Of a stretch of 64,000 nt of DNA, positions 45,956-54,019 are shown piece by piece. Location of the stretch: IMG/VR virus record IMGVR_UViG_3300025450_000016; one strand, 5' to 3'. Within the stretch, counting starts at the first letter, position 1. Each line of letters opens with the position of its first letter. The position numbers and the translations under genes were made by a program. A model generated the notes under the pieces. It ran no database searches. It was not told the DNA's origin and saw only the letters and a program-made list of their open reading frames with translations. This DNA is from a virus.

Positions 45956-46945
45956 ATGTATGCATTTGAGGATATCCGCAGACTAGAAATTGAGCCTACA
46001 AATCAGTGTCAGGCTCGTTGTCCTCAATGCTTACGCACCCCACCCGATGGTACAGTTAATAAATTCTTACGTGACGAACTATCACTAGATGTAATTCGCA
46101 ATCAAATTCCCGTCGGCTTCTGGGCGCAATTAACCAATATTAATTTTCAAGGCAGTACCGGCGACTGTATGGCACACAGAGACATTGTGAATATTGTGCG
46201 CTATATGAAACTGCATAGTCCGGCCCAAATAACAGTACACACCAATGGCGGACTTGGTTCCGCCGATACCTGGGCAGATTTAGCTAGAGTATTAGACCCC
46301 CACGACAAGGTTGTATTTGGCATTGATGGTTTAGCTGATACTAGTCCTTTATATCGCATAGGTGTTGACTTTGATCTTGCTATACGAAATGCCCAAACAT
46401 TTATTTCTGCGGGTGGACAGGCTGAATGGCAATATATTGTGTTCCAACACAATCAACATCAAATTGAACAGGCAAAGCAATTGAGTCGCGACTTAGGATT
46501 TCAAAAATTTTGGCTACGTAGCTCAGGTCGCTTTGAAGGCAAAGGTTATCAAGATGTTTATGATAAAGGTACGGTAACACACAGACTAGAGCCTGCCACA
46601 ATCAAAGTCAATTCCTACGTAGAAGGCGAATACAAACAGAATATTCAGACCACAGCAATTGACTGTGAAGCTATCGATACCAAATGGATTGGTATATATG
46701 CTGATGGTACTGTGTGGCCTTGCTGTCATTTAATGGGATGGCATCGTATTCCCAATTATGGTCTGAGTAATTTAATAAACAAAAAGAAAATCATTGAAGT
46801 AGTCGGCGATTACAGCCAAATTGATTTGCACACGCATACCTTAGACACTATTATTCGCAGTGACGTATTTCAAAAGAACTATGAGAAAAGTTTTACAAGC
46901 AGTCAACCAATACCAGTGTGTGTAAGCACCTGCAGACGACGATGA
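45956..46945 (+). CDS. radical SAM protein with C-terminal twitch/SPASM domain
   Basis: CQARCPQC; HTNGG; FGIDG; C-terminal C..DGTVWPCC..CVSTC. Confidence 0.9.
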   Translation: MYAFEDIRRLEIEPTNQCQARCPQCLRTPPDGTVNKFLRDELSLDVIRNQIPVGFWAQLTNINFQGSTGDCMAHRDIVNIVRYMKLHSPAQITVHTNGGLGSADTWADLARVLDPHDKVVFGIDGLADTSPLYRIGVDFDLAIRNAQTFISAGGQAEWQYIVFQHNQHQIEQAKQLSRDLGFQKFWLRSSGRFEGKGYQDVYDKGTVTHRLEPATIKVNSYVEGEYKQNIQTTAIDCEAIDTKWIGIYADGTVWPCCHLMGWHRIPNYGLSNLINKKKIIEVVGDYSQIDLHTHTLDTIIRSDVFQKNYEKSFTSSQPIPVCVSTCRRR

Positions 46946-48381
46946 ACACGCAAGAACTACGAGCCAACTTGGAAAAAGACTATAAGTTATTGGTATTTGC
47001 TGACTTTGCAGAAGTTAGCCACTCACCAACGGCTGCTTACAAGTTATTAGAAAGTGTACGCAAGGATGAGTTTGCCGACCGCGAGCGTATTGTATTCTAT
47101 GGTAATTACCCAGACCCGGAGTTGGTTAATCACGTGGCCAGGGCCAGAGAACTGTTGGACATTGGCGAGTTCTTTTGTATTTGGCAAAATGATATTTCTG
47201 ATGCCGGCATACCAGGAACAGGATACCAGGTCAACAGTGACACGTTTTGTCCATTGCTGTGGGGTCATTTAGAAGTTAGACACAACGGCGATGTATATCC
47301 TTGCTGTGTAAGCAAAGAGTTTATTGGTAACGGCAACGATAATACCTTAACAGAGTTATATCACAGTGATCAAATGAATCGTATACGTACAGAACTATTG
47401 TCTGGTGTGCAATCCAAGGGCTGTGAAAAATGTTGGCGTCACGAAGCTGAAGGCTTACAATCAAATCGCCAATGGCACATAGGCAAGAACAGCCGTGATT
47501 TTTACAGTACCTGGCACGATGACCTAAAAGTACGCAGCTTGGACTTGAAGCCCGGTAATGTATGCAATTTTAAATGCCGTGTTTGTAACCCAACTAGTAG
47601 TAGTTTGGTGGCCGAGGAAGTGAGACAAAGTCAACGACAACGTGGTATTAGTATTCCGGTGGTGGGCGATCGTTGGGCTGGCTACAATGAGTTTATGTGG
47701 GGCGAGCTAGATCGACTCATACCCGACGTAGAAAATTTAGATTTCTACGGCGGTGAACCGTTTTTGTTAAAAGAGTTAAAGACATTTTTACATTCGGCTG
47801 TGGCCAATGGTCACGCTGATCATATACGTTTGCACTTCAACACCAATGGTAGCGTATATCCCGAGGACTTGATTGATACTCTGCGACAATTTCGCGAAGT
47901 TGATGTTTGTTTGAGTATTGACAATGTGGGCATTCAATTTGAATTAGAGCGCGGTGGCACGTGGACAGCAGTTGAACAAAATATTTTACGATTCAAAGAG
48001 TTAACTGCCGATCCTGTGTTCAAAGTAAGCATATTCCCCACTGTCAACATACAAAACATTTATTACCTGGATCGTTTGTATGAGTGGGCCGACCAACACA
48101 ACATAATGGTCACTTTAAACTACTTGGATGATCCCGATTACCTGAGCATAGACTCAATGACTTCTGCGGCACGTGACTTGGTTGTTGATAAATATCAAAC
48201 TAGTTCAAACGAATCTTTGCGTAATCTAGCTCAAAGAATCAAATCAAGCGCCGGCAGCAACGGACAAAAATTTATAAAAACTGTGGCGTACTATGACCGT
48301 ATACGCTCACAAGACTTTACCAAGACTCACACAGAAATAGCTCAAGCGATGGGCTACACAGGACTCAACAATGATAACTAG
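46942..48381 (+). CDS. radical SAM protein with N-terminal extension and twitch domain (probable start ATG 46942)
   Basis: CPLLW..YPCC..CEKCW; CNFKCRVC; FYGGEP; ATGA overlap with the upstream stop. Confidence 0.9.
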   Translation: MNTQELRANLEKDYKLLVFADFAEVSHSPTAAYKLLESVRKDEFADRERIVFYGNYPDPELVNHVARARELLDIGEFFCIWQNDISDAGIPGTGYQVNSDTFCPLLWGHLEVRHNGDVYPCCVSKEFIGNGNDNTLTELYHSDQMNRIRTELLSGVQSKGCEKCWRHEAEGLQSNRQWHIGKNSRDFYSTWHDDLKVRSLDLKPGNVCNFKCRVCNPTSSSLVAEEVRQSQRQRGISIPVVGDRWAGYNEFMWGELDRLIPDVENLDFYGGEPFLLKELKTFLHSAVANGHADHIRLHFNTNGSVYPEDLIDTLRQFREVDVCLSIDNVGIQFELERGGTWTAVEQNILRFKELTADPVFKVSIFPTVNIQNIYYLDRLYEWADQHNIMVTLNYLDDPDYLSIDSMTSAARDLVVDKYQTSSNESLRNLAQRIKSSAGSNGQKFIKTVAYYDRIRSQDFTKTHTEIAQAMGYTGLNNDN

Positions 48382-52292: not shown

Positions 52293-53586
52293 AAATATAT
52301 TCTGTAACATACCTTGGTATGAGATCCATATCAATCACGACGGCAGTTATGACCTCTGTGGTTGTATGACTGAATTGATTACCGAAACAGATCAAGCCAA
52401 GGTTTGGAACATACGCAACTATAGTGTGGACGAATACTGGAACAGCCGCCGACTGCGAGATGAACGCTTGCAAAAAATGTCAGACACACCTAATCCAGCC
52501 TGTGCTATCTGCCAACACCAAGACTCAATTGGCAGTCACAGCAAGCGTATCAAGGAAAACCTAAAGAGTGTGCTGTTTAACGATCTCAACTTCAACAAGA
52601 GTTTCGATCAAAGTCCGCACAGAACCATATTTGAACACAGCCTGCACAACGACGGTGAGACCACTACACGGCCGGTCAGTTATCATTTGAGTTTGGGCAA
52701 CGAATGTGACCTAGCCTGCATTATGTGTAGTCCATACAGCAGTTTTAAACTGGCACAAGACTACCGAGCCTTGGGTTGGATACAGGATGCTCGTAGATTA
52801 AATTGGACCGATGATCCTGCGATTTGGGATCAGATGTGTGCAACATTGTTGGCCACAGACTTGGTTAATCTGCACATTATCGGCGGTGAACCCACCATTA
52901 ACAAGCGTTTTCATCAACTGATTGACACCTTGGTTGCTGCAGGGCACACCAACTACAGTTTTAGCTTTACCACCAATGGTATGCACGATTTAACAGAGTT
53001 ATGGCCCAAGTTGGCGCAATTTAAACGTGCCGAAGTCAGTTTCAGTATCGAAACCATGAGTAAAACCAACGACTACATTCGTTATGGCAGTACGTTTGAA
53101 ACCTTGATCGACAACATTGCACAGGCACGCAGAGATGCGCCCACAAACGTGGATTTTGTTATACGTACTGTGCCTACATTTTTGACTATCACAGAATATG
53201 TGGATGTCATTGAATGGTGTGCGGCACAAGGGCTAGTAGTTGACAGTTATTTTGCCACAGATCCAGTCTGGCAACAGATCAAAATCTTGCCCAAATCGAT
53301 CAAACAAATGTTGCAAAAAGATTTTGAGCAGTTGCTGACAAAACTGAATCGACTAAAACAGGACAGGCCAGCTGGCATGACCAATTGGCGTAATCCAGCT
53401 TATGCACTAGAAAACTGTATCAAAGAAACAGAAAGCAGTATTGCTAGCTTGCAACACACAGAAGATTATGTGGACCTGAGACGCGAAGCGGCACGTAGAT
53501 TGCGCGAATTAGACACCCGACGTGGCACTGACGTGACTGCTCAATTTCCCATACTAAAAGATTTTTTAATAGAATATGGCTACTAA
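52282..53586 (+). CDS. radical SAM protein with N-terminal twitch domain
   Basis: CNIPW..LCGC..CAIC; CDLACIMC; IIGGEP; FTTNG. Confidence 0.9.
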   Translation: MPNKNIFCNIPWYEIHINHDGSYDLCGCMTELITETDQAKVWNIRNYSVDEYWNSRRLRDERLQKMSDTPNPACAICQHQDSIGSHSKRIKENLKSVLFNDLNFNKSFDQSPHRTIFEHSLHNDGETTTRPVSYHLSLGNECDLACIMCSPYSSFKLAQDYRALGWIQDARRLNWTDDPAIWDQMCATLLATDLVNLHIIGGEPTINKRFHQLIDTLVAAGHTNYSFSFTTNGMHDLTELWPKLAQFKRAEVSFSIETMSKTNDYIRYGSTFETLIDNIAQARRDAPTNVDFVIRTVPTFLTITEYVDVIEWCAAQGLVVDSYFATDPVWQQIKILPKSIKQMLQKDFEQLLTKLNRLKQDRPAGMTNWRNPAYALENCIKETESSIASLQHTEDYVDLRREAARRLRELDTRRGTDVTAQFPILKDFLIEYGY

Positions 53587-54019
53587 TTTAAAGTTTAGCA
53601 TAACTGTAGATCCTGTGGGCTATGCGGACCGCTGGCCAGAGTTTTATATCAAAATTGATGACCACCTTCAGGATCGGGGTGTGTTGCGAGACACAGCCAC
53701 TTACAACTTTGACGTCTCGCTCCAAGACGGTAACCACACTATTGCAGTTGGGTTTACCAACAAGCTGGATGATGATACTCGGGTTGAGAACAATCAAATT
53801 GTGGCCGACAAAGCAGTCGTAGTCAAAACTGTCAACATTGAAGGGTACGAGTTGGCTGATTTCATCTATCGTGGACGTTATTTCCTTATAGGTAGAGAAA
53901 CAATGTCCAGCAATTACCTCAGTTGGAATGGTGAATGGCGTTTGGATATTACCACTCCAATTTTTACTTGGATACACGAAACACAGCAGTTGGGCTGGAT
54001 TTACGGGAAAAAATTATGA
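53576..54019 (+). CDS. hypothetical beta-sandwich protein
   Basis: 147 aa, overlaps the radical SAM stop; beta-strand-like pattern; YLSWNGEW..PIFTWIH. Confidence 0.7.
   Translation: MATNLKFSITVDPVGYADRWPEFYIKIDDHLQDRGVLRDTATYNFDVSLQDGNHTIAVGFTNKLDDDTRVENNQIVADKAVVVKTVNIEGYELADFIYRGRYFLIGRETMSSNYLSWNGEWRLDITTPIFTWIHETQQLGWIYGKKL

Follow-up and report, generated by a model that had tools for sequence, protein, structure and literature searches.

Behind each of the genes gp47 and gp46 of an uncultured freshwater T4-like giant phage, a C-type radical S-adenosylmethionine (SAM) gene overlaps a gene of the N_Twi_rSAM family, and the same C-to-N arrangement recurs in other phages and in distant bacteria and exists in nature as complete fusion proteins. 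The genes lie in a 64,000-nucleotide (nt) stretch of IMG/VR record IMGVR_UViG_3300025450_000016, here called the window, which falls within a 133-kb fragment of 38% completeness by CheckV. The C-type and N-type enzymes are supported as partners in one kind of pathway, often as one unit, rather than as an inseparable holoenzyme. From sequence comparison it is tentatively proposed, with confidence somewhat short of even, that these modules edit an unusual sugar, probably of the amino or uronic type. Both enzyme families are large and unstudied, and N_Twi_rSAM is catalogued without a known reaction. The coupling of the two genes, their conservation from freshwater phages to predatory bacteria and their natural fusions make a testable case that two radical SAM enzymes act together as a unit, whose sugar chemistry may be new. 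Radical SAM tailoring cassettes in phages are already known, and of the new facts the fusions are the most useful.

The block reads, on the plus strand, gp55, gp47, C1, N1, acc1, gp46, C2, N2, acc2 and a SegE-like GIY-YIG gene (Table 1). Counted from gp47, the junctions measure +3, -4 and -11 nt, followed by a 54-nt gap before gp46; those of the second cassette measure -41, -11 and -11 nt, followed by a 30-nt gap before segE. An original prediction, made from the letters of the window alone, had placed both cassettes at these positions, had called them tightly coupled and had counted 11 radical SAM genes in the window. The genes are where they were said to be, neighbours within a cassette overlap by 4-41 nt or stand 3 nt apart, and the count is right: six N-type genes in a cluster at the left of the window (one cut by its edge), one radical SAM gene of 279 amino acids (aa), C1, N1, C2 and N2. 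A megablast search with the 9.5-kb block gave no match among GenBank phages.

Pairing recurs beyond the window, as a check of co-occurrence proposed with the original prediction bears out for phages and Bdellovibrionota. An N-type gene follows the C-type gene at 18 of 43 distinct phage C genes, in every case with an overlap (-4 to -31 nt), and the reverse order is seen once; C-to-N coupling is also present at 8 bacterial C genes. When one genome per prokaryotic species is considered, most C-type genes belong to Bdellovibrionota, and others to Acidobacteriota, Myxococcota, Verrucomicrobiota and Alphaproteobacteria. At roughly half of the bacterial C loci an N-type gene lies no more than 7 kb away, and arrays comprise up to ten radical SAM genes. 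Contigs of Bacteriovoracaceae, Halobacteriovoraceae and Oligoflexia again show C ahead of N, spaced by -56 to +4 nt. By contrast, an N_Twi_rSAM gene above the cut-off is absent from all 14 control genomes. A C-type profile compared with 1.84 billion representatives retrieved 1,751 clusters at E<=1e-30, with fusion proteins among the top matches. Two are C+N fusions, P0222 (856 aa, present in JGI and Logan assemblies) and P0264 (802 aa, present in two JGI samples), and a third, P0294 (771 aa, one contig), is an N+C fusion. Both halves of all three are complete, keeping CX3CX2C, GxxGDP or GGEP, and the auxiliary Cys residues. Thus the claim that the two types work as a pair stands as a frequent partnership, upheld by the phage coupling, the bacterial loci and the fusions, but not as an obligate one, given that C alone, C-C and N alone also occur.

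All four enzymes keep the CX3CX2C motif, which starts at residue 18 in C1, 26 in C2, 208 in N1 and 142 in N2. The two C-type proteins lack GGEP and have a Cys-rich domain at the C terminus, and the two N-type proteins have such a domain ahead of the core, as had been read from the sequence at the outset. At the place where GGEP, the motif in contact with the methionine of SAM, would align, C1 has GSTGDC and C2 has GDIGDP, a variant of the form GxxGD[CP], and GGEP itself is found at residue 270 of N1 and residue 201 of N2. In an alignment of 37 C-type proteins the invariant positions include the three cluster Cys, G71, G74, D75, T102-N103, D130-G131, R141 and four auxiliary Cys, the last at 237, 257, 322 and 326 in C1 and at 257, 275, 326 and 330 in C2. 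Where a SPASM domain has seven or more conserved Cys for two auxiliary clusters, the C-type family has four, and its match to the Pfam SPASM model is partial (21.2 bits for C1); four suffice for one extra cluster, which makes the domain twitch-like rather than a full SPASM. Scores against Pfam Radical_SAM (PF04055, cut-off 29.5 bits) are 40.0 for C2, 34.1 for N1, 42.8 for N2 and 23.9 for C1, the only one below the cut-off; C1 is homologous to C2 at E 4e-26. At least 1180 relatives of C2 are found at E<=1e-5. All six cassette genes are under purifying selection, with a ratio of non-synonymous to synonymous substitution rates (dN/dS) of ~0.09 for C2, such values being rough owing to saturation of dS.

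N1 and N2 are members of NCBIfam NF033640 (N_Twi_rSAM, cut-off 170 bits), with 295.5 bits over residues 99-468 and 244.6 bits over residues 5-428, respectively; C1 and C2 reach at most 35 bits and are not members. The likeness of N1 and N2 to the family extends over the full model and takes in the N-terminal Cys-rich domain, CX3CX2C and GGEP. N1 differs in an extra N-terminal alpha/beta domain of ~98 aa, for which the ESM Atlas (residues 1-100) returned alpha/beta matches of a generic kind, without any RRE. Since no member of NF033640 has been characterised, membership gives no function.

The AlphaFold 2 (AF2) model of C2, with a predicted local distance difference test (pLDDT) score of 89, has a radical SAM/SPASM-type fold. 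Its top Foldseek match is BlsE (7vob, 2e-10), and VIA Z scores are 18.3 for SuiB, 17.2 for SkfB, 17.0 for BlsE, 16.8 for DesII, 16.4 for anSME, 16.2 for viperin and 14.1 for BtrN. BtrN, DesII, BlsE and viperin share with C2 a partial TIM-barrel core and a C-terminal auxiliary-cluster domain, but identity is 11-19%, C2 has GxxGD for GGE and no family model reaches its cut-off. Peptide maturases score as well as the sugar and nucleoside twitch/SPASM enzymes, and hence only the fold class is common. Viperin and pVip models match weakly (NF038283 at 27-28 bits against a cut-off of 180; PADLOC pVip at 25-34 bits, over the core only), and a defence or anti-defence role was dropped, PADLOC having given nothing beyond these pVip core matches. 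Sequence searches of the PDB with C2, N2, acc1 and acc2 returned chance or core matches only.

The two cassettes are best explained as anciently diverged copies of one two-enzyme module. Identity is 24% between C1 and C2 and 22% between N1 and N2, and in a tree of 95 C-type proteins (a quick search, arbitrarily rooted) a split with 99% SH-aLRT support separates C1 from C2, with Bdellovibrionota proteins in either part. A recent duplication of one cassette is rejected by these low identities and by the depth of the split, with bacterial members on either side.

The third genes do not share this history. The original prediction saw the same pattern behind gp47 and gp46; this holds for C then N but fails for the third gene, acc1 and acc2 having no homology to each other and unrelated folds. 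Neither is a fixed part of its cassette, for relatives exist that have C1-N1 but no acc1, and C2-N2 but no acc2. A 479-aa phage protein that has PF00501 and the complete SSGTTGKPK is 31% identical to acc1, and homologues of 479-501 aa with an adenylate-forming (ANL) domain occupy the same junction in other phages (29-34% identity and E to 2e-53 for those of 485-501 aa). The alignment sets LVTGAAA-------THKK of acc1 against SSGTTGKPKRITNTHKK of the full-length phage homologue, a deletion of seven P-loop residues. acc1 also ends at the A8 hinge, with a stop at HFAG, where the homologue runs on with FKGRAD and ~100 aa. Lacking both the A3 P-loop and the C-terminal subdomain of the ANL superfamily, acc1 is unlikely to adenylate, yet the truncated form is under purifying selection, with pN well below pS and dN/dS ~0.15 (dS saturated). 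Seven truncated and eight full-length clusters of the family are known. On this sequence evidence acc1 is a maintained protein, probably non-catalytic.

For acc2, the AF2 model (pLDDT 88) is a beta-sandwich with 2xhh and 2xfd, both carbohydrate-binding modules of family CBM60, as top Foldseek matches (E 9e-4 and 3e-3, probability 1.0); the best of these has template modelling (TM) scores of 0.53/0.64. Pfam PF16841 matches below its cut-off (E 0.006, 17.6 bits against 28.2), and the ESM lead goes in the same direction. acc2 has a conserved acidic stretch, NKxDxDT...DKA; unlike the calcium-dependent CBM60/CBM36 modules to which its model is likened, it is stand-alone and cytoplasmic and carries an extra conserved C-terminal helix. 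Homologues number 37 in phage metagenomes. Among the loci in which it was seen (the window, L002, L005, L034, L045, L080 and L098), acc2 stands only behind the 434-439-aa N2 subtype, never behind that of 402-426 aa. Distant acc2-like open reading frames (ORFs; 23-28% identity) lie next to ~500-aa radical SAM genes in the junction modules L130 and L135.

The junctions that hold the cassettes are cargo sites drawing on one gene pool. In a gp46-anchored sample of relatives (80 loci of more than 600 matches, gp46 identity 68-89%), 66 intervals from gp46 to segE were complete: 21 were empty and 40 had at least one C-type gene (12 C alone, 13 C-C(-C), 5 C-N). The interval from gp47 to gp46, complete in 67, was empty in 25 and held N alone in 7, C alone in 4, C-N in 1, an ANL gene in 5 and other genes in the rest. 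Loci found with C-type queries had suggested gp46-C2-N2, or C2 itself, as a core of the clade, which was abandoned when the gp46-anchored sample gave a C-type gene in the 40 intervals noted above. Orthologues of C1 that follow gp47 in relatives are 61-88% identical to it. These two junctions and that between gp55 and gp47 also host B12-type radical SAM genes, short SDR-like genes and a TctC-like binding protein gene, and homologues of four genes from the operon at the left of the window (11238-12191, 348-1313, 10181-11248 and 9352-10191, the last being the 279-aa radical SAM gene) are found in the gp47-gp46 junction of other phages. The full twin layout is limited to a few related genotypes: the window, L001/L035/L090, L030-32, L033, L034/L036 and L080.

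Away from gp46 and gp47, relatives of the pair stand among genes of a sugar type. In the bacterial loci L065 and L075 a PP-loop ATPase gene leads an operon that continues with C, N, one more radical SAM gene and a GT2 gene (Pfam 1e-17 and 1e-22). A homologue of window gene 12188-13084 is also present there, as are a second GT2 gene and genes resembling aminotransferases and Asp/Arg hydroxylases; homologues of gene 12188-13084 lie beside C/N pairs in five bacterial loci. In L068 an ANL enzyme gene precedes C, N and another radical SAM gene. C-type relatives in Campylobacter phage CP220 and Pelagibacter phage Mosig are placed among sugar aminotransferase, carbamoyl- or amidino-transferase and glycosyltransferase-like genes. 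In light of these contexts, of the CBM60-like acc2 and of the gene pool common with the left operon, radical sugar editing is the most economical reading.

A mechanism covering substrate class, chemistry, complex formation and product target may be proposed from the observed gene structure, motifs, coupling, co-occurrence, fusions and purifying selection. The C-type gene is translationally coupled to the N_Twi_rSAM gene, as a module carried in the plastic junctions of the gp55-gp47-gp46-segE core block, and the cassettes would be part of the same dispersed tailoring toolkit as the large radical SAM operon at 1-15.4 kb of the window. Each enzyme would cleave SAM at its CX3CX2C cluster and take hydrogen from a nucleotide-sugar or a chain-attached sugar, the auxiliary cluster acting perhaps as electron sink or substrate anchor, as in BtrN, DesII and BlsE-type enzymes; the resulting sugar would be oxidised, epimerised, deoxygenated or C-branched. 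Consecutive steps would fall to C and N, possibly as one complex. acc2, which goes with the long N2 subtype, would be an optional helper that binds sugar, and acc1 a selected, catalytically dead remnant of an adenylating enzyme found at this junction in related phages. Placement by gp46 and gp47 would reflect insertion hot spots and early or middle expression rather than a role in recombination, and the product could be destined for the virion, DNA or the host envelope.

Several observations weigh against sugar editing. Neither cassette contains a glycosyltransferase gene, and the left-cluster genes found in the junctions of other phages gave no Pfam or NCBIfam match in support of a glycosyltransferase nature. 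Neither the C nor the N family has a characterised product, target or activity. The assignment of acc2 as CBM60-like draws on a sub-threshold Pfam score and TM scores of 0.53-0.68, and a substrate call from the C2 fold (Foldseek, VIA) was dropped when sugar, nucleotide and peptide enzymes tied within 2 Z units. In the gp46-anchored sample, moreover, C alone (12), C-C (13) and N alone (7) outnumber C-N (5 after gp46, 1 after gp47). This mosaic content of the junctions, which is extreme, could mean that C, N and the third genes are chance-adjacent passengers of a hot spot, each with its own substrate or with a non-sugar product such as a lipid, a cofactor or an antibiotic-like metabolite. The optional nature of acc1 and acc2 and the presence of B12-type radical SAM, SDR-like and solute-binding-protein-like genes in the same junctions fit such independent cargo; complete C+N fusions in both orders do not, nor do the conserved C-to-N order and overlap in distant bacteria and the N-type genes found near half of the bacterial C loci but in no control genome. 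Independent cargo is doubtful.

Two further readings are less probable than independent cargo. The original prediction took co-transcription with gp47 and gp46 to point to action during DNA replication, for example DNA or nucleotide modification. On such a reading the pairs would be made early with these genes and would tailor a hypermodified base or its nucleotide precursor, perhaps a DNA-borne sugar. In its favour, the cassettes run in the direction of gp47 and gp46 and are closely coupled to them, no convincing terminator lies between gp55 and segE, a C-type gene follows gp46 in 40 of 66 relatives, and nucleotide or nucleoside enzymes (viperins, BlsE) are among the best fold matches of C2. 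In phage M6 thymidine hypermodification involves a radical SAM enzyme, and in T4 the DNA alpha-glucosyltransferase gene adjoins gene 47. Comparison lends the idea no support, however: an SbcCD neighbour is found in 0 of ~32 bacterial loci, a third of the relatives have empty junctions (25/67 for gp47-gp46, 21/66 for gp46-segE), a homing-endonuclease-like nuclease gene splits gp46 from C2 in L080, and the relatives in CP220, Mosig and bacteria sit in glycosyltransferase/aminotransferase clusters away from replication genes. Within the cassettes there is no DNA-binding, glycosylase or kinase partner, and viperin models score far below cut-off (27 of 180 bits). DNA or nucleotide-pool modification is thus unlikely, and, these junctions of T4-like phages being cargo sites, closeness to replication genes says little about function. 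It is still less likely that the C/N pairs and their CBM-like and ANL-like helpers tailor a sugar on phage DNA or on a nucleotide precursor, e.g. glycosylated 7-deazaguanine, which, if true, would introduce a class of DNA hypermodification not described before, in which two radical SAM enzymes with four clusters between them form the editing complex. Equally improbable as DNA modification in general is the modification of peptides or proteins, by maturases of virion proteins or of substrates like ribosomally synthesised and post-translationally modified peptides, that make thioether, C-C or epimerised residues. Peptide maturation is the typical role of SPASM/twitch radical SAM enzymes, the top structural neighbours of C2 include SuiB, SkfB and anSME, and the best weak NCBIfam matches include maturase families, but every maturase model is far below its cut-off. 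Pfam and NCBIfam detect no RRE/PqqD-like domain in C or N2, the 98-aa extension of N1 is generic alpha/beta, the overlapping genes leave no room for a precursor gene within the cassettes, and bacterial neighbours are GT2s, not proteases, transporters or precursors.

Many radical SAM genes have been reported from phages before. Campylobacter phages CP220 and CPt10 have 11 and 12, of function not known (PMC2853527), a Tara T4-like genome has 12 with no function given (PMC5332604), and radical SAM cassettes lie in the host-recognition clusters of pelagimyophages (PMC7029224). CP220 and CPt10 resemble the phage of the window in being T4-like and rich in radical SAM genes, and C-type relatives at 23-31% identity are found in CP220 (gp080, gp083 and gp084) and in Mosig (gene 84). 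Unlike the cassettes described here, the radical SAM genes of CP220, CPt10 and the pelagimyophages lie in separate islands with amidino- or carbamoyl-transferases and not at the gp47 and gp46 junctions, and no N_Twi partner was detected beside the C-type genes of CP220 and Mosig. A literature search found no paper on the N-terminal twitch family or on C/N pairing. Related genes are carried by the culturable phages CP220, Mosig and Vibrio phage K566.

A promoter of gp46's own, which the original prediction asserted, is plausible from the sequence. The best sigma-70-like match in the 43.5-55.2 kb region, TTTACA-17-TATAAT, falls in the one real gap of the block, that before gp46, and TATAAT or TACAAT stands 8-9 nt before the gp46 ATG in 6/6 relatives, even where it abuts the N1 stop codon. 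Counts of promoters and terminators in the region equal the shuffled expectation, and the single best site before gp46 is what was retained; the T4 late-promoter word TATAAATA gave one match against three expected and was not used. Should the TATAAT at 49545-49550 (also in L001, L030, L033 and L034) serve as a -10 element, gp46 would be transcribed almost without a leader.

Table 1. Features of the gp55-segE block, in window coordinates
Feature	Position	Strand	Evidence
gp55 late sigma factor, start of co-oriented block (context)	43976..44884	+	PHROG 12791, 2e-82
gp47, SbcD-Mre11-like nuclease subunit	44933..45952	+	PHROG 100, 1e-59; Pfam Metallophos
C1, radical SAM core with C-terminal single-cluster twitch/SPASM-like domain, 329 aa	45956..46945	+	CX3CX2C, auxiliary Cys
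N1, N_Twi_rSAM, 479 aa	46942..48381	+	NF033640, 295.5 bits
acc1, truncated adenylate-forming (ANL) homologue without P-loop, 377 aa	48371..49504	+	Homology to PF00501 phage protein
Sigma-70-like promoter candidate before gp46	49522..49550	+	TTTACA-17-TATAAT, 11/12, consensus match
gp46, SbcC-Rad50-like ATPase subunit	49559..51328	+	PHROG 77, 8e-107; Pfam AAA_23 and SMC_N
C2, C-type radical SAM, 334 aa, 41-nt overlap with gp46	51288..52292	+	CX3CX2C, Pfam, AF2 fold
N2, N_Twi_rSAM, 434 aa	52282..53586	+	NF033640, 244.6 bits
acc2, CBM60/CBM36-like beta-sandwich protein, 147 aa	53576..54019	+	AF2 model, Foldseek
SegE-like GIY-YIG gene, closes block (context)	54050..54478	+	Pfam PF19835, 4e-32

The SegE-like gene stands at the end of the block in nearly all relatives, with 71-95% identity in most and 34-42% in some. 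Homing endonucleases are seldom conserved to this degree, which suggests a domesticated function. A second GIY-YIG gene, LEM-3-like (250 aa, PF22945 3e-9), lies exactly between gp46 and C2 at L080:9983-10735, on a 357-kb metagenome scaffold that otherwise has the full twin layout, and breaks the gp46/C2 overlap of 41 nt seen in the window. In L006:49-2752 an N-terminal piece of gp47, three ORFs and a C-terminal piece of gp47 follow one another, and in L008:167-5109 an 88-aa N-terminal fragment of gp46 is succeeded by a 368-aa ORF and a 661-aa gp46; these seemingly interrupted genes may represent intron, intein or homing-endonuclease insertions.

Other loci show further variants of the block. 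After a full-length ANL gene in the gp47-gp46 junction, L004:3304-4239 encodes a homologue of TctC-like tricarboxylate-binding proteins (PF03401, 4e-23), a periplasmic-type binding fold that is odd in a cytoplasmic phage operon; the 318-aa ORF in the same position at L081:8544-9500 has no Pfam match. A 28-kb contig with the order gp55-gp47-C-gp46-C2-N2-acc2-segE (L045, CAYVBV010000012.1) is binned in a Polynucleobacter metagenome-assembled genome (MAG), and similar contigs are binned in a Haliscomenobacter MAG (L046) and a Saccharibacteria MAG (L047). All three are probably mis-binned phage DNA, and the Polynucleobacter binning is a weak hint of the host. Among the bacterial loci, the complete 2.9-Mb Bacteriovoracaceae chromosome OZ242254.1 (L049/G003) has at least 9 N_Twi_rSAM genes above the cut-off, and a 15-kb stretch of it at ~1.415-1.428 Mb contains four N-type and four C-type genes along with two other radical SAM genes.

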